Shown in pieces: positions 15,795 through 51,233 of a stretch of DNA of 64,000 nt. A program made the translations under genes and the position numbers. Below the pieces are notes generated by a model. It saw only the letters and a list, made by a program, of their open reading frames with translations. It searched no databases and had not been told where the DNA came from. How positions within the stretch are numbered: position 1 is the first letter of the stretch; each line of letters starts with the position of its first letter. This DNA is from a virus. The stretch is taken from the UHGV virus genome UHGV-0240017. One strand, given 5' to 3'.

Positions 15795-15820
15795 TCTCAC
15801 CTAAGTAATATATATCTGAG
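15795..15820 (-). promoter_or_regulatory. conserved promoter-like motif (coding strand TCAGATATATATTACTTAGGTGAGAG) plus downstream hairpin
   Basis: One of three near-identical copies; about 50 nt upstream of the start codon; followed by inverted repeat gagttaattgtaactc. Confidence 0.55.
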
Positions 15821-28022: not shown

Positions 28023-30740
28023 ATGGACGATATTAGTAAATTAACGGGCGACCCCGCCGTAGCTGCAATTCTTCGTAAAACTACGGGCCCAGCACCCCAG
28101 CAACAACGCGGTACGCGTAGCGAGGGTGGTTCTACGCCAACACGTCAGGAACTTGCAGGAATTGTAAGTTCGCGTATTCGTACTATCAAAAATGCGGAAC
28201 GTATCTTTGATGCGTTACCTGAACTCGAAACGATTGTTACCATTGCAACTTCGAGCTTGCTGTCGACAAAAGACTTAATCAACACCACGTTGATTTACGA
28301 CAACATCGCAGACATTCCAATTGACTTACGTAATGACTTACTGACACCAACTCGTGATTATCATGATAACGTACGTCAATTACCTAAGAAATTATATCAG
28401 TGGATTTACGACGCGTTAAAAACAAAAGGCGCAAGTCCAGTGATGATAATCTCGGACAACGGATTTGACCAGCTGTTCGGTTTAGACACCAAAGTCGCTA
28501 CCGAATCCATGCGACGTTCTCAAGCCGCCTATTTCGAGGAACAACTCGGTATTCTCGGTCCAATTAACGCGCAAGGTGACGGGCAACGCGTAGGTGTGGA
28601 ATCTATTCTGAGCCGTGTCCGTGGACCTGTTAATGGACCACAATCACTGAAAATCAATTTCAGTAACCATGATAAGATGTTCTCAGATAAGTTCGAAATG
28701 GACATCACGATTACCGACAACCCACGTATCACGTTACTGCCCCATGCTTATCGTCGAATCGCGCATGAGAACGCTCGTACTGGTCTCTACGGCCAATTAG
28801 AGCAAGCCGCATATGAAAAGCCTGCCACACCGACAGGTGCCACGCCGTATGAAGTTAATCAACAGTTTAACGATCGTCAGCGTGACGCGGCTGAAAACGG
28901 CTTCATTAACTTAGGCGATCTGAACGAAGCGTACAAAGGTACACCAAAAACTCAGACATATGGTGATATTCCGATTATTTCGATGAATGAAAACAATCAA
29001 ATCGAATATTTCGAATGTTTACTCCCTGCTGAGTCTACCGCACCGTTGGTTATCGGTGACGACGTTCGTAACCCTATTGGGTTTCTGACCATTATTGACG
29101 ATATGGGTAACTTCATCAACTCACGTTCTTCACTTTACGGAGACGCGAACTTTATGAACTACCTTAATAATGACGGCATGACAGACAGTATTATCAACCG
29201 CTCTAATTTGGGTTTGGGTAATACCTCTCGTATAACGCCAGAGATCGCCAACCGTTTAAGTGCCCGTTGTAGCGAGATTGCTGAGAACGAATTTACCCGT
29301 GCGTTAAGCCAGGCATTGGGTGGAGCTGAAATCAGCATGAAAATTACCGAAACTTTCGGTCGTATTCTGCTGGCACGTCACCTCGCAAAACGTCACACAC
29401 AGGTTGTCTATATCCCGGTTAATAACTTGTGCTACTTTGCAACGGACTTTAACGAAGATGGTATTGGGGTGTCTATCACTGAGCGTTCCTTTATCATTTC
29501 TACGGTCAGGATGGCGCTGTTGTTCGCAACGATGAACTCTTCAGTGTTGAACTCAGCACGTCACATGCAATACGACATTGAGTTATCGCCGGACGATATG
29601 AACGGCCAGAAAACGGTTGACCAGGTTAAATCGGATATCCTTAACTCCTATAATCGTCGTTTACCGATGTGGGGTGATATCAATGACGCTTGGTCAATGG
29701 GGGCTAATGCCGGGATTGCATTTAACGTGACGGGTAATGAATACTACGCCAGTCATAAAGTGTCAGTTTCGGACACAACGCCCGAGTATAAAGTACCCGA
29801 TCAACAAATCGATGAGAACTTACTCCGTCGTACTTGTCACATCGCGTGTGTAGACCCGGATCTTGTTTTGACGCCGGAAAACCTGGAATTTGCTTCGCAG
29901 ATTTATTCCAAGTCACTGCTGGTCACTCAGCAAATCGTGAAGAAACAAGAAATTCTGTCTACGCCGTTAACACGCTACGTGACAAACAGTTTGCAAGCCT
30001 CTCCTAAGTTACAAGCAGAGTTGATTCGTATTATTGTTGAATATATTCGCAATCAGAATCCTAATGTAACAGGTGAAGACTTGACCAAACAAACGTCAGA
30101 GTATCTGGCGAAGTTCATCAATGGCATGAAAGTCACCTTACCACCACCAGACACTTCAGCTTCTTCTTCACAAGCGGATCTGTTTGATAAACGCTATGAG
30201 TTCATTGAGAAACTGGCGGATCTGGTTGTTACCGACGATATTTCGAATATGCTTCAGAATGAAGGTATCGAAATGCAGCCTGATGATCTCAAGACGATGA
30301 TTAAATCGTTCTATACGCGTAACTGGCTGCGTAATCAAGGCATCGAAACCGATCTGTTTGATTTGATCTACGACGAAGATAAACGTGGTGAAAACGTCAA
30401 GATGATTTCTGATGAAATCGCAGCAGCATCGAAGACGCTGATTCAGTTAGCTAAACGCACAACAGGTAAAGTTGAAACCTTAGCAAAAGCGGCTGATTTG
30501 AATCCTGAGGACGCCAATAACTTCGGCGGGGGTAGCGACTTCGGTGGCGGCTCTGAAGACGACGGTGGCTTAGGGGGCGATGAGGAATTAGGTGGTGACG
30601 ATATGGGCGGTGATGAAGACTTGGACATGTCTGATGATGAAACGACGGAAACCGATACAACAACGGAAGAAGACGTTTCTGCTGAAGACACAGACGAGAC
30701 GGATACCGGTACAGACGACAGCGCCGACGAAACTCTCTAA
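28023..30740 (+). CDS. large hypothetical protein with Gly/Asp/Glu/Thr-rich acidic C-terminal tail
   Basis: 905 aa; last ~75 residues are low-complexity acidic; intrinsic terminator immediately downstream. Confidence 0.6.
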   Translation: MDDISKLTGDPAVAAILRKTTGPAPQQQRGTRSEGGSTPTRQELAGIVSSRIRTIKNAERIFDALPELETIVTIATSSLLSTKDLINTTLIYDNIADIPIDLRNDLLTPTRDYHDNVRQLPKKLYQWIYDALKTKGASPVMIISDNGFDQLFGLDTKVATESMRRSQAAYFEEQLGILGPINAQGDGQRVGVESILSRVRGPVNGPQSLKINFSNHDKMFSDKFEMDITITDNPRITLLPHAYRRIAHENARTGLYGQLEQAAYEKPATPTGATPYEVNQQFNDRQRDAAENGFINLGDLNEAYKGTPKTQTYGDIPIISMNENNQIEYFECLLPAESTAPLVIGDDVRNPIGFLTIIDDMGNFINSRSSLYGDANFMNYLNNDGMTDSIINRSNLGLGNTSRITPEIANRLSARCSEIAENEFTRALSQALGGAEISMKITETFGRILLARHLAKRHTQVVYIPVNNLCYFATDFNEDGIGVSITERSFIISTVRMALLFATMNSSVLNSARHMQYDIELSPDDMNGQKTVDQVKSDILNSYNRRLPMWGDINDAWSMGANAGIAFNVTGNEYYASHKVSVSDTTPEYKVPDQQIDENLLRRTCHIACVDPDLVLTPENLEFASQIYSKSLLVTQQIVKKQEILSTPLTRYVTNSLQASPKLQAELIRIIVEYIRNQNPNVTGEDLTKQTSEYLAKFINGMKVTLPPPDTSASSSQADLFDKRYEFIEKLADLVVTDDISNMLQNEGIEMQPDDLKTMIKSFYTRNWLRNQGIETDLFDLIYDEDKRGENVKMISDEIAAASKTLIQLAKRTTGKVETLAKAADLNPEDANNFGGGSDFGGGSEDDGGLGGDEELGGDDMGGDEDLDMSDDETTETDTTTEEDVSAEDTDETDTGTDDSADETL

Positions 30741-30743
30741 ATA

Positions 30744-30807
30744 GCAAAAAAAAAATAATTCGAGCTTACTCCGACCCTTCTGGGGTCGGAGTGGCTTTTC
30801 TTTTTTT
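30744..30807. terminator. bidirectional intrinsic terminator between convergent genes
   Basis: ctccgaccc-ttct-ggggtcggag hairpin with an A-run upstream and a T-run downstream on the plus strand. Confidence 0.75.
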
Positions 30808-31106
30808 CACCACGCTATCTCGTCTTTCTTAATAGCAAGGTCTAGCATCACTCCTATTGCTAAGGGATCGTTATCGTACGCCGTCAGTTTAGCTAACAGT
30901 TCCGACTGACCTGATTTCTTGACGGCTTTCAGTAGCTCATTGCGGGCATTATAGTAGATAAGCCAGTATCTACCGTGATTGATTTTGGTGTTTGAATGCT
31001 CTAATAAGTAGCGATTAAACTCCATTGTTGCTTTGGTTTCAGGTAGCTCAAAACGAAAACGTGGGCTACGTTCGTAGTCTACATTAATAACGACATATTT
31101 AATCAT
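30807..31106 (-). CDS. hypothetical protein
   Basis: 99-aa ORF. Confidence 0.5.
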   Translation of the reverse strand: MIKYVVINVDYERSPRFRFELPETKATMEFNRYLLEHSNTKINHGRYWLIYYNARNELLKAVKKSGQSELLAKLTAYDNDPLAIGVMLDLAIKKDEIAW

Positions 31107-31147
31107 TTCCTCATTCCCTCACTATAGTGGGCGGCTATAATAAATTG

Positions 31148-31182
31148 GGGAATAAAAATAAAGGAGGAGAGCCGAAGCTCTC
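31148..31182 (-). terminator. intrinsic terminator (UUCG loop)
   Basis: ggagagc-cgaa-gctctcc preceded on the plus strand by an A-rich run. Confidence 0.65.
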
Positions 31183-31193
31183 CTGTGGGGCGA

Positions 31194-31442
31194 TTAGACA
31201 ATAGCGGCAATACGTTCTTCTAACAACAACTTCTCTGCGGCCATTACCTCCAGTTCCGCAGTGATCAGTTTCACTTGGCGATCGTCAATGAAAATTGGGC
31301 GTTTTTCAATGAACTGTTCGCGTTCGTGCATCCGAACTTGGAGTTGGTATAACTCCAGATTAAGCTGTTGCTTTAAACGAGCGGCGGTATCAATCTCCTT
31401 TAACTCAATTTTTGTATTACTATAATCAACATAGGCTGCCAT
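31194..31442 (-). CDS. small coiled-coil protein
   Basis: 82 aa; heptad-like Leu/Glu pattern. Confidence 0.5.
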   Translation of the reverse strand: MAAYVDYSNTKIELKEIDTAARLKQQLNLELYQLQVRMHEREQFIEKRPIFIDDRQVKLITAELEVMAAEKLLLEERIAAIV

Positions 31443-31486
31443 GTTACTGTCCTGTGGTGTCTATAGATTAGGGGGCACGAAGCCCC

Positions 31487-33139
31487 TTAGTAACGCACCG
31501 GTGCGGTAATTTCACCATTGCTAAGCAGCGTATACGATGCCGACGGGGTAGCCAGCTTCACAATAGCTTCAGGTGCGCGTTGGTTAATTGCTTCATAGAT
31601 ACCGACAATAGGTTCAAACGCATTACCGAATGAGGAAATCTCTACGATATTGCGTCCTTTTGCAGACGGGTAATCCGCAGGCAGCTGAATGGTGTAAGTT
31701 ACGCGGCAAATTTCAATAGCACGATCGTTAGATTTCAGACGGAAATGCAGCTTACGAACAGAACGTGCAACCAGCAAGCACAGTTCGCGGAAGAAATCCG
31801 CAGCCGTGGTTACACCATTTTCACCGATAGTGCGCGGGAACAGCGTGTCACGGAAGTATTCGAGATCGCTTAAGTTACAATCGAATTGTACAAATTTCGT
31901 ACCTGGAATTCCTTTACCGTAGTTTGTCGCAACAGCAATCGCGTTATGAACCAAAACAGTGAGTGTTGCGTTAAACTGCTGACAGAACTCCACACAGCTT
32001 TGTTTCAGTGTATCCGGCTCCTCTGCCTGAGTATTGAAATATTGCAGTAGGCGCTCAGACATTTTACGGATGCGGAACACCTCATCGATCGTACGCTTCA
32101 GCATTTCTTCCGGATCGTCAATATCGCGAATATCTTCGATACCATCGATTGCCTGGCGGGTGGCAGTATAAAATTCTTGAAGGTAAGTTTTGCTCGAGTC
32201 CGTACTTACCATCGGGAACAATTTATACTCACTTTCGGTTTTCACCATCACGTCCGCTTCATCATAGACGCAATAATCGATGTCTTTATTATCGATGATT
32301 TCGTCAACCTTTTCTGACCAATTGTGATGGCTAGAATACGGTGAATTTTTGATGCGTTCGTTAAGTTCTTTTGGCGTAAGAATGTTTTTCTTAATCTGTT
32401 CTCTAAGTTCGTGATCTAAATAGTCTTCCACAATTTCTACCCGGAAATGATCGATGATAGGTTTATTGTAACGTTCGACAAGTTCTTCGATAGTTTTCTC
32501 GTCGAGCTCACGCGGCTTGTTAGCTTCCACCATAGAGTGCGAAACAGTCGGTTGTGGCTGTGCCTGTTGCACGGGTTGTTGTGCAGGCTGTTGTGCAGGC
32601 TGACCGAAGTTACCTTGCGGTTGCGCTGATTGCTTCTGTGCCGCTGTACGCGGATCGTAAGTTGACATTGGGATAGAACCCCCTTCTACCGCTGTTGCTG
32701 GTCGTGGGCTACCGTGGCCACTGCCTGTAAAGCTAGACGCGGGCATCGCTAAGCTCGGCGAAGCGGGCATTGTTGGGCCAGCGAAAGAGCTCGAATGTCC
32801 CATAAGCTGTTTAGCTTGTACCGCATACTGATTCGCCGTACGGAATTCCTGTTCCAGCTGGCTGTGAATACGCGGGTCCAATGGCTGCATACCACGCCCC
32901 AGTAAGTCACTATACAGCGTCGATTTAAATGTTGCCAGAATCGCCGATGCAGTTTCGTTATCTGGAAGACGGTTGTATACAAACCACGTGGCGACGGTAA
33001 CGGCATTATCCATGTATTTGTCGTCATTCATTCCGGCAGCACGTGCTTGATTACAAAGGTATGATAAAAGTTCGTCGCGGCCACTAGAGATTGTGCTATA
33101 GATGTGGTTACGAATTGCGTCTTTATTGACAGTTGCCAT
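31487..33139 (-). CDS. hypothetical protein with Gln/Pro-rich low-complexity linker
   Basis: 550 aa; linker QPQGNFGQPAQQPAQQPVQQAQPQP between two globular-looking parts. Confidence 0.55.
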   Translation of the reverse strand: MATVNKDAIRNHIYSTISSGRDELLSYLCNQARAAGMNDDKYMDNAVTVATWFVYNRLPDNETASAILATFKSTLYSDLLGRGMQPLDPRIHSQLEQEFRTANQYAVQAKQLMGHSSSFAGPTMPASPSLAMPASSFTGSGHGSPRPATAVEGGSIPMSTYDPRTAAQKQSAQPQGNFGQPAQQPAQQPVQQAQPQPTVSHSMVEANKPRELDEKTIEELVERYNKPIIDHFRVEIVEDYLDHELREQIKKNILTPKELNERIKNSPYSSHHNWSEKVDEIIDNKDIDYCVYDEADVMVKTESEYKLFPMVSTDSSKTYLQEFYTATRQAIDGIEDIRDIDDPEEMLKRTIDEVFRIRKMSERLLQYFNTQAEEPDTLKQSCVEFCQQFNATLTVLVHNAIAVATNYGKGIPGTKFVQFDCNLSDLEYFRDTLFPRTIGENGVTTAADFFRELCLLVARSVRKLHFRLKSNDRAIEICRVTYTIQLPADYPSAKGRNIVEISSFGNAFEPIVGIYEAINQRAPEAIVKLATPSASYTLLSNGEITAPVRY

Positions 33140-36157: not shown

Positions 36158-38452
36158 TTACTTACCAGCAGCAGCTTTGCCTTCGCCAGCAACGTTACCT
36201 GCTACACCACCTTCGGTTTGTTTCTGACCGTTCTGTTCAACAGAAACATTGTAAGCCAGTTTTTCTTCAACCAGTTTGGTGATGCCTTTAACCCAGATCA
36301 GACCAGTGATCGGGCAGTGGCAGATGTGCGCGTTGCGCGGCTGTACGGCCAGCTCTTTAGAGGTAGAACCGTTACGCTGAATGTTGATGTTAGTAACCAT
36401 GATCGGAGACCAGAAGTGGTTACCCCAGTTCAGCACGTTGTAGGAACCATCGTCCGCAGTCGGAACTTTCAGGAACCATTGCAGACGACGAGTCCAGGAA
36501 CCGTCAGCTGCGTTGTAGATACGCCAGCGGTCATCGTTGGTGGTGATCACTTCGTATTCGTAGCGATCGCCCAGCAGACGTTGGTCACCTTGTACCAGCA
36601 GCAGCATGGATGCAGTCGGTTCGTCGGTTGCAATAACAACCTTCGGCAGAATGTCCGGATCGGCAGTGTACAGACGCAGCGCAGGAATGAAGCGAGATTC
36701 CTGGATAGCCTGAGTTACCTGATTACCGATACGCTGTACCAGGCCCTGACGAGCGTTGATCAGTGCATCTTTGGTATCCAGGGACTGTACAACTTTATCA
36801 ACGTTGTAGTCAGACTCTTTGAACCACGGAGCAACCCAGTGACGGCCCAGGCCACGAATGGCCGGTTTGTCCCACGGAGTGATCATGCTTGCAGCAGCGT
36901 TACGTACCGCTTCGGTGTAAGACAGCGTCTGAGTGATAGCCAGCTGTTCGTTACGGATGTTAACTGCGGAAATCAGGTCGTCCAGACGTTCGGTATCGTC
37001 GTATTCAACGCCAACCGGAGACTTGGTCAGAATCGGAGAACCGTATTGCAGCTTGTAGTTTTCTTGTTCCCAGATTGGGTCGAGCAGCAGACCCTGGGTA
37101 CGACGGTTTTCGTTGGTACGAGTACCATCGAAGCGCCAGCCGATCAGTTCAAGTTTCAGATTTTCCAGGACAGCTTTGCCGGTACCAGTCTTGATATCAA
37201 CTTTGTTACCGGTAGCGTCGTACAGACCTTCGATTTCCAGTTTGTGACCAGCAATGTCAACTTTACCACCGAACTGACCGGTAGTGAACAGAGACATGTT
37301 GATGGTGATCACGTAACGCAGAGTGTAGGAGTTCTGTTCCAGTGTTTTCAGAGCCGGAATAGCTTCGCCTTTCCAGTCGGTAGTTTTCGCGTTCAGAGAG
37401 AACGCAGTACGACGGAATTGCAGTACCAGCTCACGGCCATCACCTTCAGCAGGACGCTGGAAGGTTGCGAACTGCATGTCACGAACGTGCAGTTTAATGA
37501 ATTTACCTGCTTTTGCATCTTCAGCCGCTTTACGTACGGAAATCAGCAGGCTGCCCAGAGCACAACCCGGCGCGATTTCATCAGTTTCGTCGTAACCTTC
37601 GATGACGATACCCGGATGCGCAGACAGCTGGAACAGGTTCAGAGTGTCTTTAGCAAAACTCAGGTAGTTAGTCGGGTACGGAGGTACACGGCCCAGGCGA
37701 ACAGATTCGTTCGGTACCAGATCTTCGCTTACGAAGTATTCCGCGTTTTCACCGGTTTCCATTACGTAAGGAACGATGTTGATCGCTTCGTCCTGGAGAA
37801 CGGTGTGGTCAGTCAGCGCTTCGTGCAGGTTACGACGATGATCTTCAACAACATCTTTGCTCAGCAGTGCGTTCATTACACCACGAGAAACGGTGGTCAC
37901 TTTGGTACGTACGGTAATACCAACATCGTTGGTGTCAACAGTGATGGTCGGGAACAGAGTCTCAGCGAAACGAGACTGGGTTTCCAGAGCACGTACGTTC
38001 AGCGTCCAGGTCAGACCCAGGTTTTTGTCGTAGTCTTTGTTGGTGTAGTATTCCTGAGCGACAACCATACGCTCTTTGCCCCAGTCGCCGTTACCAGCTT
38101 GGGAACCAGGAATCGCAACGTCCAGGTTAAAACGGCTATGGAATTCTGGCTTAGCGTATTCTTGCGCTACTTTTTCTTGCAGGTCCATACCGTGACCAGC
38201 AGCACCCAGAATCATTGCAGAAGCAACTTCCGCAGCGTGGGACATTTTCTTACCGCCAGCAAACGCGTTTGCGTAGTGCTGTGCAGCATCGTCACGCAGG
38301 GTACCAAAAACTTTCGTGTTGCTACGTACAGACTCACCAGCAACGATGGTGTTCCACATTTCGCCAGCAGTGTTGTTACTAATGACGCTTTGTACCAGCG
38401 AGTTACCAGCTTGTACGAGTTTCTCCAGATTAGAGATTCGGGTATCTTTCAT
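36158..38452 (-). CDS. major capsid protein candidate (large jumbo-phage-type)
   Basis: 764 aa; extreme codon bias; strong terminator; A-x-E sites in the N-terminal ~150 aa (AGE, AAE, AQE); size matches phiKZ-like capsid proteins as I recall. A tail sheath is the alternative. Confidence 0.45.
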   Translation of the reverse strand: MKDTRISNLEKLVQAGNSLVQSVISNNTAGEMWNTIVAGESVRSNTKVFGTLRDDAAQHYANAFAGGKKMSHAAEVASAMILGAAGHGMDLQEKVAQEYAKPEFHSRFNLDVAIPGSQAGNGDWGKERMVVAQEYYTNKDYDKNLGLTWTLNVRALETQSRFAETLFPTITVDTNDVGITVRTKVTTVSRGVMNALLSKDVVEDHRRNLHEALTDHTVLQDEAINIVPYVMETGENAEYFVSEDLVPNESVRLGRVPPYPTNYLSFAKDTLNLFQLSAHPGIVIEGYDETDEIAPGCALGSLLISVRKAAEDAKAGKFIKLHVRDMQFATFQRPAEGDGRELVLQFRRTAFSLNAKTTDWKGEAIPALKTLEQNSYTLRYVITINMSLFTTGQFGGKVDIAGHKLEIEGLYDATGNKVDIKTGTGKAVLENLKLELIGWRFDGTRTNENRRTQGLLLDPIWEQENYKLQYGSPILTKSPVGVEYDDTERLDDLISAVNIRNEQLAITQTLSYTEAVRNAAASMITPWDKPAIRGLGRHWVAPWFKESDYNVDKVVQSLDTKDALINARQGLVQRIGNQVTQAIQESRFIPALRLYTADPDILPKVVIATDEPTASMLLLVQGDQRLLGDRYEYEVITTNDDRWRIYNAADGSWTRRLQWFLKVPTADDGSYNVLNWGNHFWSPIMVTNINIQRNGSTSKELAVQPRNAHICHCPITGLIWVKGITKLVEEKLAYNVSVEQNGQKQTEGGVAGNVAGEGKAAAGK

Positions 38453-39002: not shown

Positions 39003-40565
39003 ATGAATAACAAAATGATGTTGATAACCGCCTTAGCCACATTATACGCTGAAAGTCTTCTGACCGATCCTGAAAAGGACCACGACATCATAAGAAAAGT
39101 GCTGTTAGAGGCTAAGCTTCCTGATTACGCAGAAGAAGGTGACGAACGTGCCGCCCTCGTCGAAATCAAGGATATCATCACATCCATCATAGACGGCGGT
39201 ATGCCTTACGACCACACAAACGTCATGAAACGTTTGAAACTGGCCACTACGCAAATACGTCCTCTATACGATACGATTACCAAATTCCTGGAAGATGATA
39301 TTCCAGAAGAACCAGAAGCACGCATCGAGCATCTTAATCGCCAAGTAGCACAATACTACTTTCAGTTACGTCAAGCTATTCAAGGCGTACAACTGAAACA
39401 AAAATTGGGTCGTACGTTAGGCGCACTGAACGGCACTGAAACGCGTGTTGATTTACAAACGGCGCTCAACGACCTTAAGGATACCTTATCCACGTTCAGT
39501 GAACGCTCTCATAATAAGATTCCTTCTCTGGTAGGGGAATTGATTACTGACAATAAAGCACCCTTCGTACATGTATTCGACTCTATCAGTAAGAAAGCGG
39601 CAGGGAACGGGTTGCGTACGGGCTGGAAAGCAATTAACCAAATGCTCGGTTGTAACAAAGGGATCACTGAAGAACTCTGGCTAATGCCTGCACTGCCCTT
39701 TAACTGTAAGTCATTATTCAGTTTATTGCTCTCTATTAGCATTCCTGTATTCAACACTCCAGAAAAGGTGATGGCGAATGTTAAAGGTGACTTACAACCG
39801 GTTATTCTGGATTTAAGTTTAGAAAACGAATTAGATGTTAACTTGGCTTACGCGTATCAAGCACTTTACGGACACTTTGAAGGTACAGCTCCGGTAATGG
39901 TTGCACCTGAAACAGCAACTGACGAAGAAAAAGCGCTACACAATGCACAAATGTCAGATTACCTCTGTAGTAAAATGCGGGCAAACGGTTGGGAGTATAT
40001 TTTCCAAAAACACACAAACTCCGATTTTAAAATTCACTATTTGAATGATTTGATTTTAGATTTAAAACGTCGAGGTTATCATGTAGCTGGAATACGCGGA
40101 GACTATTTCGGTACTATCAGCAAAGCAGGGCACGGTAACGGTATTGCGGGTAGCGACATTAAAGAAATTTATCGTATCGCGCGAAACATCCAAGTGGTAC
40201 GTAATCGTGGTTTCCTCTTAGCACCACACCAAATCTCACCTGAAGGCAAAAAATTAAAAGCACTCGACCCAGCAAGTTTCTGTAAGAGCTTACCTGGTCG
40301 TGGTCTTTACGACAACTGCTCTAGCTTAGACAACGAAGCTGACGGTGAGATGTATTTTAACAAACGTGTCGTCAGCGGACACAGCTATTTAGAAGTACAA
40401 CGCGGTAAACACCGTACCATTATTGACACCAAAGAAGCTTATCATTATACTGTAATACCTTTCCGTGATGTTGGCATTTTGCCTTGGGATTGTGATAAAG
40501 AAGAAACTGTAACAGCCTCGTCGATTAACGTATTTACCGGCGGCATGGGTGACGAACTCTTTTGA
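39003..40565 (+). CDS. hypothetical protein
   Basis: 520 aa; AAGGA RBS; start only 13 bp from the divergent start of 38465..38989. Confidence 0.6.
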   Translation: MNNKMMLITALATLYAESLLTDPEKDHDIIRKVLLEAKLPDYAEEGDERAALVEIKDIITSIIDGGMPYDHTNVMKRLKLATTQIRPLYDTITKFLEDDIPEEPEARIEHLNRQVAQYYFQLRQAIQGVQLKQKLGRTLGALNGTETRVDLQTALNDLKDTLSTFSERSHNKIPSLVGELITDNKAPFVHVFDSISKKAAGNGLRTGWKAINQMLGCNKGITEELWLMPALPFNCKSLFSLLLSISIPVFNTPEKVMANVKGDLQPVILDLSLENELDVNLAYAYQALYGHFEGTAPVMVAPETATDEEKALHNAQMSDYLCSKMRANGWEYIFQKHTNSDFKIHYLNDLILDLKRRGYHVAGIRGDYFGTISKAGHGNGIAGSDIKEIYRIARNIQVVRNRGFLLAPHQISPEGKKLKALDPASFCKSLPGRGLYDNCSSLDNEADGEMYFNKRVVSGHSYLEVQRGKHRTIIDTKEAYHYTVIPFRDVGILPWDCDKEETVTASSINVFTGGMGDELF

Positions 40566-40668
40566 GTCTGGGGAGCTTCGGCTCCCCCTATAACCCCTTA
40601 TGCGTCTCGAAAAGCAAAAAAAAACAGAAGACTATTAATTATGAACGGAAAACAACTACCGAACTAAG

Positions 40669-40700
40669 CAGGGGGTGGTAGCAACACCCCCTTTATTAGT
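40669..40700. terminator. GC-rich hairpin terminator
   Basis: cagggggtg-gtagcaa-caccccc followed by tttatt. Confidence 0.5.
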
Positions 40701-40707
40701 TAGTAAC

Positions 40708-40875
40708 TTATCTCCTTACAGGTGGTTGGTGAACATTGTGGTTGTTAACCGTTTTCGGTGCCGCAACGAGGCCGAGACGAACATATTCGTCCATGCGTTG
40801 GTTAAACTGAATTTGTTTCTCACGATTTCGCATCGCGGTATTGAACATCTGTATTTGATATTCGTTCATTTTCAT
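40708..40875 (-). CDS. small protein, diverged/frameshifted member of a 3-gene paralog family (copy A)
   Basis: ORF track 40708..40923; likely start MKMNEY at 40875. Shares RLGL and 3'-end nucleotides with copies B and C but the C-terminal half is read in a shifted frame. Confidence 0.4.
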   Translation of the reverse strand: MKMNEYQIQMFNTAMRNREKQIQFNQRMDEYVRLGLVAAPKTVNNHNVHQPPVRR

Positions 40876-40923
40876 TACCTTTTGTAATGTTGTAAAAACG
40901 TCAACAACTTTATGCGTTGACAC

Positions 40924-41020
40924 CGTACAGTAGAGACTGGTGGAACAGCCTCTACTGCTTTAACTTCTCTTTGGAAAAGTTAAAGCTAAGAAAAGGGGTG
41001 GTGGTGCACCCCTTTTTATT
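40924..41020. repeat. structured repeat unit of three hairpins (cassette copy 1)
   Basis: gtagagactggtggaacagcctctac; gctttaactt-ctctttggaaa-agttaaagc; ggggtg-gtggtg-cacccc plus T-run. Confidence 0.6.
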
Positions 41021-41092
41021 ATACCTACGACCACCATCTCGGCAGGTTACTGTACGAGGAGGAGGGGCGTGTCAGCGTCCCTCCTTTATTTG

Positions 41093-41266
41093 TTAGTAGT
41101 GTTCACTCCTCTTTTCAGTGAATATCTGCGTGAAACGGTTGGTAGACGGTTTTAACCGTTTATCCATGCCGAGCTGACTATACTTGTAGATACGTTGCTG
41201 TAAATTGGTCTTTGCTGCACTCTGTTCTGCAAGCATTTTGTCAGTAAAGTAGTAACCATTGTTCAT
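41093..41266 (-). CDS. small basic protein, paralog family copy B (57 aa)
   Basis: Own translation MNNGYYFTDKMLAEQSAAKTNLQQRIYKYSQLGMDKRLKPSTNRFTQIFTEKRSEHY; GAGGG RBS; below ORF-track size cutoff. Confidence 0.5.
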   Translation of the reverse strand: MNNGYYFTDKMLAEQSAAKTNLQQRIYKYSQLGMDKRLKPSTNRFTQIFTEKRSEHY

Positions 41267-41311
41267 GGTAAGCCCTCTTTGTAGGGTGATTAAAGAAATC
41301 CACTACGGAAA

Positions 41312-41425
41312 CGTGGTGGTGCTGTAAAGGGTACGCTGGTGCTACAGCGTACCCTGCTTTAACTTCTCTTTTCGAAAAGTTAAAGCTTTGATAAGGGGTG
41401 TGACGCCACCCCTTTATTTTATTTA
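41312..41425. repeat. structured repeat unit of three hairpins (cassette copy 2)
   Basis: gggtacgctg-gtgcta-cagcgtaccc; gctttaactt-ctcttttcgaaa-agttaaagc; ggggtg-tgacgc-cacccc. Confidence 0.6.
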
Positions 41426-41432
41426 GTAGTTA

Positions 41433-41603
41433 CTTCTCCTTTCGGTGAAGATTTGTACTCGAGGATTATTAGAAGGTTTAAGCCTTTTATTTAATCCTAG
41501 CTGTTGAACTTCTCTTAATCGTTCATTAAACCTCGCTTGTTCTGCATAGCTGTTCGAGATAGAAGTAAAGATACGTGTATTGTTGTTAGTCATGTTAAAA
41601 CCT
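41433..41603 (-). CDS. small basic protein, paralog family copy C (56 aa)
   Basis: Own translation MTNNNTRIFTSISNSYAEQARFNERLREVQQLGLNKRLKPSNNPRVQIFTERRSNY; differences from copy B are mostly synonymous or conservative. Confidence 0.5.
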
Positions 41604-41649
41604 CACACGAGTTGGGTATTAAGCTATTACGTACCGGTAATAGCGACAA

Positions 41650-41745
41650 GTAGGGACTGCTGGTACAGTCTCTACTGCTTTATCTTCTCTTTCGAAAAGA
41701 TAAAGCGCCTAAGGGGAATGTTGGCGCACTCCCCTTTAGGTTGTT
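41650..41745. repeat. structured repeat unit of three hairpins (cassette copy 3)
   Basis: gtagggactgctggtacagtctctac; gctttatctt-ctctttcgaaa-agataaagc (compensatory change versus copies 1 and 2); gggga-atgttggcgcac-tcccc. Confidence 0.6.
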
Positions 41746-41841
41746 ACCTCCTTTCAACTATCAACCGGGTGTTTCTTGGGTATGCAACCGACGAAACAGC
41801 AGTTCATGTTTCATGAACTTATCCCCTATGTTGAATTTGCG

Positions 41842-41884
41842 AAAATAAATAAAGTGTACCCCTAATCCCGAAAAGGATTAGGGG
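41842..41884 (-). terminator. intrinsic terminator
   Basis: cccctaatcc-cgaaaag-gattagggg hairpin preceded on the plus strand by an A/T run. Confidence 0.65.
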
Positions 41885-41890
41885 TTGCTT

Positions 41891-42706
41891 TTATTTAGTC
41901 GCTACGTATTGAACATGGCCACATTCCTTACATTCCACGTTGGCTTTCGGGATTGTCAGGCCGGTTAAAGGAACACGTATTTGATACTGCGCTCCACATT
42001 CTTCACAAACAAAGTCGTATTCTGGATAGACACGACCTTCTAATTTCTCTTCTTTCCTTAGTGTGCCTGCTAAGAACAGCATCGCACCTAACGCTTCATT
42101 AATCTGCTGTTCCCATTCTCCGTCTAACGGGTAAGCGAACGCACGAGTCAACGTTTCCACCATCTCTGGGGTATTACTTACATAAACGTGTTTCAGTTCA
42201 AACTCAACACGTTGTAAACCAAACAATACGCGCGCTGTTACCGTAACGTTATCTAATGTTTGTGCAAACACAACGGGATTATCGTCACCGTACATCGCGA
42301 ATAACGCAGCACGTTCGTATTCGATATCACTCCACTCGATTAGTTCTACAGATTTAATCGCTTCCGCAATCTCAGCATTACCGAACGTTTCATGTTCCAA
42401 TAATCCGACGATAACTTCATTCAACGATTTCAATTGCTGTAAACGAATCGCAGGATCGGTGTTCACGATAAGCAAACGATGCATTCTGGATTTCAACCAG
42501 TTAATCGTTCCTTCTACACCACCCCCAAACGAGCAGATGCTTATCACTTCAGGTTCGCGAAGGATAAGAGTGGATTTTCCTGCTGCCGTACTCAAGTAGA
42601 GTTTAAAAGACTTATCGTTAGACTCTGCAACGATGGCAATGTCTTCAGTTGGAACGAAGTTTTCATTGCTCAGCCCACGCGGAAAATAATCTTTAATAGT
42701 AATCAT
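41891..42706 (-). CDS. hypothetical protein with C-terminal zinc-ribbon-like motif
   Basis: 271 aa; C-terminal CEECGAQY...CKECGH. Confidence 0.55.
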   Translation of the reverse strand: MITIKDYFPRGLSNENFVPTEDIAIVAESNDKSFKLYLSTAAGKSTLILREPEVISICSFGGGVEGTINWLKSRMHRLLIVNTDPAIRLQQLKSLNEVIVGLLEHETFGNAEIAEAIKSVELIEWSDIEYERAALFAMYGDDNPVVFAQTLDNVTVTARVLFGLQRVEFELKHVYVSNTPEMVETLTRAFAYPLDGEWEQQINEALGAMLFLAGTLRKEEKLEGRVYPEYDFVCEECGAQYQIRVPLTGLTIPKANVECKECGHVQYVATK

Positions 42707-42760: not shown

Positions 42761-42904
42761 TTAACCACGACCAGTGCACTGTGCAACGGAATTACCGTTG
42801 TCGATGCAAGTGTCGTAGCCTTTGTCGATATCCAGGTACAGGCAACCCAGAACAACAGCGATAACAACAGCGAAGATAGCTTTTTTGTGTTTTACAGAAA
42901 TCAT
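42761..42904 (-). CDS. small membrane/lipoprotein-like peptide (47 aa)
   Basis: Own translation MISVKHKKAIFAVVIAVVLGCLYLDIDKGYDTCIDNGNSVAQCTGRG; signal-peptide-like N-terminus with VLGC lipobox-like site and 4 Cys; AGGAG RBS; conserved promoter-like motif upstream; not in ORF track (<60 aa). Confidence 0.5.
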   Translation of the reverse strand: MISVKHKKAIFAVVIAVVLGCLYLDIDKGYDTCIDNGNSVAQCTGRG

Positions 42905-42949
42905 GATATAACTCCTAATTAGGTATTCGATAAATGAGTATTACGTAAA

Positions 42950-42977
42950 CTCTCACCTAGGTAATATATATCTGAAA
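42950..42977 (-). promoter_or_regulatory. conserved promoter-like motif (coding strand TCAGATATATATTACCTAGGTGAGAG)
   Basis: Near-identical to the copies at 15795 and 51206; 46 nt upstream of the small-peptide start. Confidence 0.55.
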
Positions 42978-51205: not shown

Positions 51206-51233
51206 TCTCACCTAGGTAATATATATCTGAAAA
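51206..51233 (-). promoter_or_regulatory. conserved promoter-like motif (coding strand TCAGATATATATTACCTAGGTGAGA) plus hairpin
   Basis: Near-identical to the copies at 15795 and 42950; followed by inverted repeat gagattac-tgt-gtaatctc. Confidence 0.55.

Follow-up and report, generated by a model that had tools for sequence, protein, structure and literature searches.

The 64,000-nucleotide stretch of UHGV virus genome UHGV-0240017 (hereafter the window) was analyzed with respect to an array of small genes and hairpins located between positions 40,566 and 41,890. The window DNA belongs to a phiKZ-related, SPN3US-like jumbo phage. The original prediction placed the array between structural operons, whereas its flanks are genes for a DnaB-like helicase and for a zinc-ribbon-like protein of 271 amino acids (aa). 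Three intact minus-strand genes, here called A, B and C, were identified in the array, and remnants of two further paralogue types, X and D, lie beside them. Genes C, B, X and A are each preceded on their own strand by four hairpins in the order H3, H2, H1, H4. The features are listed below with lengths in nucleotides (nt), base pairs (bp) or aa and, for orthologues, the ratio of non-synonymous to synonymous differences (pN/pS); L numbers denote loci of relatives and P numbers homologous proteins.

40670..40692, terminator-like hairpin after gene A, T-rich tail on the plus strand
40708..40869, minus strand, gene A, 53 aa (MNEYQIQMF...VRR), intact paralogue, orthologues P0002/3/5/7
40900..40921, minus strand, H4 of unit A, GTCAAC...GTTGAC, immediately 5' to the ribosome-binding site
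40929..40956, H1 of unit A, 11-bp covarying stem
40957..40986, minus strand, H2 of unit A, GCTTTAACTTTTC-CAAA-GAGAAGTTAAAGC, sequence-conserved
40991..41016, H3 upstream of unit A, once the terminator of the deleted X gene
41025..41057, minus strand, remnant of an X-type paralogue, its last ~32 nt, ending ..SYSNLPRWWS and the stop codon; X is intact (61 aa) in L012, L036 and L118
41058..41087, terminator-like hairpin after gene B, the same hairpin being present 3' of B in L036
41093..41266, minus strand, gene B, 57 aa, orthologue pN/pS 0.05-0.48
41300..41319, minus strand, H4 of unit B, CCACCACG-TTTC-CGTAGTGG
41328..41355, H1 of unit B, AGGGTACGCTG...CAGCGTACCCT
41356..41386, minus strand, H2 of unit B, 31 nt, GAAAA loop
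41393..41414, H3 after gene C, terminator-like hairpin
41423..41593, minus strand, gene C, 56 aa; P0001 is 98% identical and recorded on 90 contigs; pN/pS 0.03
41623..41644, minus strand, H4 of unit C, GCTATTAC-CGGTAC-GTAATAGC
41649..41676, H1 of unit C
41677..41706, minus strand, H2 of unit C, T/A variant of pair 7
41713..41734, H3 after the D remnant
41761..41814, minus strand, 17-codon remnant of a D-type paralogue that, compared with L003, has lost 69 nt (23 codons) internally and in frame
41858..41885, canonical terminator of the 271-aa gene, GC hairpin and TTTATTTATTTTC tract, upstream boundary of the array

As judged from comparison of orthologues, the small open reading frames (ORFs) are genuine genes under purifying selection. 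Most orthologue pairs gave pN/pS values of 0.0-0.2 with an excess of third-position changes, bearing out the selection on the proteins that had been proposed, and the orthologues of gene A in L020/L021 differ from that in L024 by synonymous changes only. The third-position bias exists only between orthologues of other genomes. The paralogues B and C, previously described as differing mostly by synonymous changes, differ non-synonymously in 29 codons and synonymously in 11, with 25/16/30 nucleotide differences at codon positions 1/2/3 and an amino acid identity of 46%. The position first reported for gene B was correct, as was the motif QLG(L/M)(N/D)KRLKPS...QIFTE(K/R)RS common to the small ORFs, whereas gene C had been placed at 41433-41603 instead of 41423-41593. 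An ORF does exist at 40708..40875, where gene A had been reported, but its start is most likely at 40869 (MNEYQ), as in the orthologues. Gene A had also been said to read its C-terminal half in a shifted frame. To a limited extent this holds, in that the +1 frame of the 3' half encodes RKRLTTTMFT, which recalls KRLKPS..IFT, but A is intact and conserved in relatives. All three proteins score E 1e-25 to 1e-29 against the family profile, which no other ORF of the window does, and they are basic, hydrophilic and Q/N-rich with net charges of +4 to +6. Members of the array family have 48-61 aa and are predicted to form one long helix at the N-terminus, joined by a proline-containing linker to a short helix at the C-terminus; the AlphaFold2 model consists of helix 2-35, a linker and helix 44-54, with a predicted local distance difference test score (pLDDT) of 71.

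A profile search of 5.8 billion proteins returned 22 clusters, made up of A, B and C orthologue groups and chimeras, and an exhaustive hidden Markov model (HMM) search of 1.84 billion representative proteins returned 7 representatives only. To judge from these searches, the array family is lineage-restricted. Pfam and PHROGs searched with A, B and C gave no match at E <=0.1, hmmscan against phrog_18219 gave none at E<=1, tblastn of C found no match in 50,697 phage records, and neither a PDB sequence search nor Foldseek with the AlphaFold2 model gave a meaningful match. SPN3US carries two 48-aa genes, gp71 and gp72 (phrog_18219), at the same position, and pEa_SNUABM_29 carries one. An hhalign comparison of the window family alignment with gp71/gp72/pEa29 gave 91% probability (E 9e-7, 34 columns), and when a Seoulvirus-type HMM was run against all window ORFs, C and A were the top two (E 0.03-0.06). 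The window family and SPN3US gp71/gp72 are probably one family. The gp71/gp72-type genes, found in Seoulvirus, Machinavirus and Wellingtonvirus, share position and strand beside the DnaB-like helicase with the window array and lie, as the array does, between the helicase gene and a gp70-like gene. The likeness extends to size (47-49 aa versus 53-57 aa in the window), to an N-terminal helix bearing F(N/Q)(Q/E)R(V/L/M), to a basic C-terminus of the (I/V)(I/F)(F/T)(N/E)(K/R)(K/R) type, and to a preceding series of terminator, AT hairpin and GC hairpin. Unlike gp71/gp72, the window proteins contain a QLG(L/M)xKRLKPS insert-like segment, the window has three intact copies and two remnants as against 0-2 copies in those genera, and the H2 and H1 sequences differ. 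A literature search on SPN3US gp71/gp72 or SPN3US transcriptomics returned nothing relevant.

The same interval was taken from relatives with nearly identical flanking genes (L003-L036, L118 and L178). Copy number, which had been singled out as worth following in related phages, does vary among them: at this site, six paralogue types (D, D', C, B, X and A) combine into at least 11 arrangements with one to three intact genes. D-C-B is present in nine assemblies, the window itself has Dr-C-B-Xr-A (r, remnant), and the other arrangements are C-X-Ar, D'-C-A, D'-A, D-Cr-A, a single C/B chimera, D'-C-B, Cr-B-Xr-A, Br-X-A and ...X-B, so that both 5'- and 3'-truncated genes and an X-before-B order are represented. 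Among genera the copy number is 0 in Erskinevirus, 1 in Machinavirus, Wellingtonvirus and some Seoulvirus, and 2 in SPN3US and Proteus phage 7. The longer B-to-A spacing in the window is due to the persistence of the X remnant at 41025-41057 and of the orphan X terminator. An intact 52-aa D, ending ...QLIVERRSN, is found in L033. The palindrome, located at 41801-41819, had been taken for a separate signal upstream of the array; it is the start-codon region of the truncated D paralogue (AGTTC-ATG-AAA-CAT-GAACT), and a role as operator was rejected for that reason.

Three kinds of junction were recognized, namely crossovers within homologous ORF segments, module-compatible exchanges, and deletions at microhomologies of 3-5 nt. 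Crossovers within ORFs are seen in the C/B chimera P0019 and in L003, where the 3' end of B is joined to the 3' end of A. Microhomologies at deletions include TCG and CGGTT/ACGTT, and some truncations lie at non-repeat positions. The difference between L020 and L021 is compatible with exchange in the repeated module, other differences falling within ORFs or at microhomologies. This heterogeneity speaks against site-specific recombination. The comparison shows that the array expands, shrinks and recombines rapidly through repeated modules, gene-gene similarity, microhomology deletions and template switching at hairpins.

The tandem repeat units and their hairpins, as first reported, are real: a hairpin block of ~90 nt is present in three direct copies (40929-41018, 41328-41417 and 41649-41738), with start-to-start distances of 399 and 321 nt. 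Each unit contains four hairpins and not three, H4 having been overlooked. H3 is a terminator-like hairpin of the GGGGTG...CACCCC type located right after the previous stop codon. Only 6-8 nt separate it from H2, a T-rich/A-rich hairpin of 30-31 nt with the consensus GCUUUAACUUUUC-GAAA-GAGAAGUUAAAGC, and H1, an 11-bp stem, abuts H2 with no spacer. The stem of H4, of 7-9 bp, occupies part of the interval from H1 to the ribosome-binding site, and a short stretch after it pairs weakly with the Shine-Dalgarno sequence; a weak hairpin involving the Shine-Dalgarno region was found in each of the three units. The TTAATAC / TTAATCAC motif after H4 was considered as a promoter and rejected, since it pairs weakly with the Shine-Dalgarno region. 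The H2-H1-H4 fold was predicted in all 31 true units (32 sequences folded), the three leaders of the window have folding z-scores of -7.0, -7.4 and -8.2, and the region 40300-42200 contains 11 terminator-like hairpins against 1.9 +/- 1.5 expected.

Within the window, the H2 palindrome is confined to this block, two copies matching a 30-nt search pattern (0.00 expected in shuffles) and the third having a 5-nt loop. Among the matches listed, the H2 module occurred in IMG/VR only at this locus of relatives, and a metagenome scan with a loosened H2 pattern gave mostly chance matches, only L118 and L178 being real among those listed. H2 was accordingly rejected as a genome-wide regulatory motif. 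A CRISPR-like array or solitary repeat was rejected because the 30-nt repeat is spaced by 320-400 nt and the spacers are coding. A tRNA-like element and type III ToxI-like repeats were also considered and rejected; ARAGORN detected no tRNA or tmRNA in the whole window, and a scan of 38-44 kb against Rfam 15 at E<=10 returned sub-threshold noise (best 24 bits versus a gathering threshold of 65). In L026 (1620-1745), gene B follows C with only H4 and an H1-like hairpin (AAGGTGAGCTG...CAGCTCACCTT), H3 and H2 being missing, and the H1-like stem is compensated relative to other B-unit H1 stems. H2 is thus dispensable for carrying the gene.

When 22 distinct units were aligned, 98.5% of the cells were paired, compared to 41-56% with the partners slid, and the pairing was, as had been predicted, kept through changes on both sides. 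The H1 and H4 stems covary. In H1, 8 of the 11 pairs have changed on both sides, and H1 of unit B differs from the commonest H1 stem by six consecutive such changes (UA->GC, AU->GC, GC->UA, AU->GC, GC->CG, AU->GC). H2 has 9 invariant pairs out of 13, as well as one U.G wobble present in all units. The arms originally cited for covariation (gctttaactt/aagttaaagc versus gctttatctt/aagataaagc) were quoted exactly, but they belong to H2, where the covariation is weak, an A.A mismatch occupying that pair in 4 of the 22 distinct units. Folded hairpin by hairpin on each strand, H1, H3 and H4 were strand-neutral, whereas for H2 the mRNA strand gave the better fold in all 11 variants (-14.1 vs -9.4 kcal/mol), its invariant U.G becoming C.A on the plus strand.

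At least six pairs of H1 loops are exact reverse complements of each other on the same stem (GTGCTA/TAGCAC, TTGTAG/CTACAA, CCTATA/TATAGG, GTGCCAG/CTGGCAC, GTGGAA/TTCCAC and CGCCAA/TTGGCG). Reverse-complement loops were seen once in H4 (TTTC/GAAA) and once in H3 (CTGTCA/TGACAG), and ~0.07 such pairs are expected by chance. As several of the loop variants recur in independent assemblies, they are not assembly errors. H2 has loops of several sequences (GAAA, GAAAA, CAAA, GAATA, CGAA and GGGAG) and is never inverted among relatives, which argues for a selected orientation. Template switching can produce loop inversions and multi-base "compensatory" changes without RNA selection (Monttinen & Loytynoja 2022, PMC8794818). 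The array hairpins resemble those described there in having loops inverted in place, perfect stems and multi-base "compensatory" changes; full loop inversions were very rare in rRNA in that study (69 loop-only cases), as against at least six in one 28-nt hairpin here. In-place loop inversion is a signature of replication template switching, and its frequency suggests that template switching at short perfect palindromes is very active in this phage lineage. Because H1, H3 and H4 are strand-neutral and their loops repeatedly inverted, their covariation is not clean proof of a selected RNA. The conserved pairing of the original prediction therefore stands, whereas its step to a conserved RNA structure does not by itself follow for H1, H3 and H4, as template switching can produce such changes too. 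More generally, textbook compensatory covariation in phage hairpins can come from DNA template switching, and strand preference and loop inversion should be checked before RNA function is claimed.

Terminators of this genome consist of a GC hairpin followed by TTTTATTT(A)TTTTC. The left arm and loop of H2 (GCTTTAACTTTTCGAAA) resemble the T tract after the 271-aa gene (CTTTATTTATTTTCGCAAA). The T tail of H3 is moderate on the gene strand and good on the opposite strand, and H1 has a T-rich tail on the opposite (plus) strand only; on the plus strand, H3 and H1 thus present a GC hairpin followed by a TTTTATTT-type tract, which H3 does only moderately on the gene strand. Three elements stand ahead of the first small gene in Seoulvirus, Machinavirus and Wellingtonvirus, namely the cUUCGg-loop terminator of the upstream gene, next a TTTATTTTC...GAAAATAAA hairpin and last a covarying GC hairpin. 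Of the four distinct versions of this GC hairpin, three, those of Seoulvirus-type (SPN3US, STsAS and pEa29) and Wellingtonvirus (pEa11) phages, show a cUUCGg loop when read on the opposite strand, the loop of the Machina version being different, and all four have a canonical T tract after the hairpin on that strand. Face-to-face terminators sharing complementary T/A tracts also occur at other loci of related phages. With the H1 tail on the opposite strand, the H3-H2-H1 geometry resembles that of a face-to-face terminator pair of the Seoulvirus type. As in other face-to-face or bidirectional intrinsic terminators, GC hairpins are flanked by complementary T-rich/A-rich tracts; unlike ordinary ones, the array repeats the design before each co-directional small gene, and its H2, which is constrained in orientation, by far exceeds ordinary T tracts in conservation.

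A scan for sigma-70-like promoters found none in the H3-H2-H1-H4 modules, the minus-strand matches being limited to the inside of ORF B and a 9/12 match overlapping the start of A, and promoter scanning found no promoter-like site on the plus strand within the units. The motif TTTCAGATATATATTACYTAGGTGAG is present in three copies in the window and in many more in SPN3US-like genomes. The window copies are on the minus strand (15805-15815, 42961-42971 and 51216-51226) and share an identical sequence of 24 nt plus, (T/C)TCAGATATATATTAC(C/T)TAGGTGAGA; each comes after a terminator and has first a covarying hairpin and then TTTAC downstream of it. In IMG/VR this 21-mer was found in 37 stretches (loci L044-L079), among them SPN3US (5 sites), phiEaH2, Huxley and others. 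The motif agrees with jumbo-phage early promoters as they have been described (review PMC7598289), and is likely a conserved virion-RNA-polymerase early promoter with a 5' leader hairpin. One copy is relevant to the array:

42949..42976, minus strand, candidate early promoter for the virion RNA polymerase, TTTCAGATATATATTACCTAGGTGAGA, oriented like the array and ~1.1-1.3 kb upstream of it

As this copy sits upstream in the same orientation, the array may lie at the end of an early transcription unit. The first gene after the motif (42764-42907, minus strand) encodes a 47-aa predicted membrane-type protein (MISVKHKKAIFAVVIAVVLGCLYL...; phrog_8574) and has its own cUUCGg terminator hairpin ahead of the 271-aa gene.

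We put the probability at about 60% that the locus is a fast-changing accessory array of lineage-restricted small-protein genes, each a self-insulated cassette with terminator and leader hairpins. Each small gene would be self-contained, and H3, located immediately 3' of the preceding stop codon, would be a (bidirectional) intrinsic terminator or attenuator. H2 would represent the T-rich tract of this terminator paired with a downstream A/G-rich complement, and would be the sole element under sequence constraint and the sole one favouring the mRNA strand. H1 would be a structure-only hairpin whose T-rich tail serves the opposite strand only, and H3-H2-H1 together would insulate each small gene from transcription in either direction, including read-through from the helicase gene. 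H4 with the weak Shine-Dalgarno pairing would form the 5' leader of the mRNA, analogous to the leader hairpins after the early promoters of this phage group. As a speculation, the proteins are most likely early or accessory factors, dispensable in part, that bind nucleic acid or a host target. Several observations weigh against this interpretation. H2 is near-invariant across units whose proteins share 25-46% identity, a strictness beyond what a T tract would require and one that hints at some specific binding partner outside the model. On the mRNA strand, the T tract of H3 falls short of those found in the canonical terminators of the genome, and a single bidirectional hairpin suffices at other convergent junctions in the window, so the three-hairpin design is not obligatory. 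In L026, a natural variant, gene B is accompanied by neither H3 nor H2. No promoter was found for any of the individual small genes, and the early-promoter motif is absent from all units. Furthermore, there is no Pfam, PHROG (window copies), PDB or fold match, and the function of the proteins is inferred only.

The strictness of H2, together with its occurrence before this family only, keeps open a different explanation, possible though on the whole doubtful, in which H2-H1-H4 is a cis-regulatory 5' leader on the sense mRNA and H2 an operator bound by the small proteins or by another phage factor, resulting in feedback on translation or stability, or in a protected 5' end after processing. While the neighbouring hairpins drift, H2 stays near-invariant, folds preferentially on the mRNA strand and never occurs inverted, and its restriction to this locus, both in the window and among the IMG/VR matches listed, would suit such a role. 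The proteins are small, basic and helical, each unit has the weak Shine-Dalgarno-region hairpin, and structured leaders also follow the early promoters of this phage group. Against it, no promoter was found upstream of H2, from which H3 is only 6-8 nt away; moreover, the H2 loop occurs in six versions, the H2 sequence is missing from the D and D' members and from the Seoulvirus genes, gene B in L026 does without H2, and H1 and H4 show no strand preference. A bolder version, rather unlikely in our view, is that H2 is a recognition hairpin coupling the small basic proteins to their own transcripts, for autoregulation or as an mRNA-handling tag in a nucleus-forming phage, with the hairpin spacers as template-switch hotspots exploited to diversify early host-directed proteins. 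If true, this would be a self-shuffling cassette system specific to SPN3US-like jumbo phages. The opposite extreme, that the hairpins are functionless terminator debris, duplicated in a decaying array and kept paired by template switching (quasipalindrome correction), is improbable. It would account for the frequent loop inversions (at least six pairs in H1 plus further ones in H3 and H4, where ~0.07 would be expected by chance), it invokes a process documented to yield compensatory-looking changes and loop inversions (PMC8794818), and many array members are indeed truncated or deleted. Against it stand the same hairpin order in every unit of every relative, an equivalent terminator/AT-hairpin/GC-hairpin series before the homologous gene in distant genera, the conserved orientation and sequence of H2, and a UUCG loop on one strand of the GC hairpin in Seoulvirus-type phages and Wellingtonvirus (the Machina loop differs).

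Two further explanations concern the plus strand and mobility. Read on the plus strand, each unit could specify an antisense RNA of ~120 nt (H4'-H1'-H2'-H3' and a T tract), the array then being a tandem type I toxin-antitoxin system. The T tracts after H3 and H1 are better on this strand, 7 of the 11 terminator-like sites lie there, and in size the small ORFs would fit type I toxins. We consider this very unlikely, and a type I toxin-antitoxin pair was rejected, as the proteins, hydrophilic and basic with a net charge of +4 to +6, are not membrane peptides; in addition, the units contain no promoter-like site on that strand, H2 folds worse there with its invariant U.G turned into C.A, and copies are freely lost in relatives with no partner remaining. 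The alternation of small ORFs with a conserved folded repeat, and the variation of gene content between relatives, recall mobile cassettes exchanged by site-specific recombination at H2, either integron/attC-like or by strict PeSL-type exchange (see below). attC core sites read GTTRRRY / RYYYAAC, and H2 holds the near match GTTAAAG / CTTTAAC. Such mobility is hardly probable, and integron attC sites were rejected, since the junctions are heterogeneous (crossovers within ORFs, microhomology deletions and truncations at non-repeat positions) and not site-specific. The module was never found on an unrelated gene or in another phage lineage among the matches listed, and no recombinase is encoded by the ten neighbouring genes, to which this search was limited, an integrase not having been sought genome-wide.

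The accessory array of insulated cassettes favoured here has its closest precedent in the PeSL cassettes of T4-type phages, in which small ORFs of variable regions are insulated, and their shuffling is promoted, by a promoter/stem-loop repeat that brackets them (Arbiol et al. 2010, PMC2839356); analogous elements occur at the internal-protein (IP) loci of T-even phages (Comeau et al. 2014, PMC4122927). Both comprise small lineage-specific ORFs in a variable region, bracketed by a repeated intergenic motif of ~100 nt with a G/C-stem terminator hairpin, the stable G/C stem-loop between PeSL ORFs having its counterpart in the terminator-like H3 after each stop codon. In both, close relatives differ by insertion, deletion or replacement of units of ORF plus motif, and the motif gives each ORF transcriptional insulation, which for the array is a putative function. 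The array differs in having four hairpins per unit and not one, in ORFs that are paralogues of one family and not unrelated ORFans, in a motif restricted to one locus and not scattered through the genome, and in many junctions outside the motif. The defining sigma-70-type early promoter is absent from its units, this phage group using its own RNA polymerases, and for this reason the array is to be regarded by comparison as an analogue and not a member of the PeSL class. The original statement that no known phage module has this layout thus overlooked both the PeSL cassettes and the face-to-face terminators of related phages. The locus is more elaborate than first noted, but it is a tidy variable accessory hotspot and not a new kind of system. 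Its value lies in being a compact example of small accessory gene turnover in giant phages, with at least 11 combinations of six paralogue types in one lineage at one site and junctions that record homologous crossovers, microhomology deletions and hairpin inversions. It also defines an uncharacterised yet persistent small-protein family (SPN3US gp71/72 and relatives) that is amenable to deletion and expression in SPN3US, and it offers candidate parts for phage engineering in the hairpin insulator module and the conserved early-promoter-plus-leader-hairpin motif.

The array is located at a convergent junction, where the plus-strand helicase gene meets a long block of minus-strand genes. The assigned neighbours are listed below, the others being conserved hypothetical genes.

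36158-38452, phiKZ-type major head protein, neighbour of the locus
39003-40565, plus strand, DnaB-like helicase gene, downstream neighbour of the minus-strand array
41891-42706, minus strand, gene of the 271-aa protein, weak C-terminal zinc-ribbon match

Around the array, DNA identity to SPN3US-like jumbo phages is ~75-81% and confined to the end of the helicase gene. The helicase gene (start 39003) and a divergent 174-aa gene (phrog_8266, start 38989) have start codons 13 nt apart, so that their promoters must fall within each other's coding or leader regions. Just past the helicase stop codon, the plus strand at 40572-40627 contains a GGGGAGCTTCGGCTCCCC hairpin, followed after ~10 nt by TTATGCGTC and then by an A9-11 run. 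This element is also present at L001 5275-5330, at L002 5278-5335 and in L039 (phiEaH2), and is conserved in Seoulvirus, Erskinevirus and the window lineage, even without the small genes. At another convergent junction, the intergenic-looking stretch 30740-31490 has a bidirectional terminator at 30768-30793 and apparently two unlisted minus-strand small ORFs with a GGAGGAGAGCCGAAGCTCTCC hairpin (~31163-31185) between them, and may be a second small-gene pocket.

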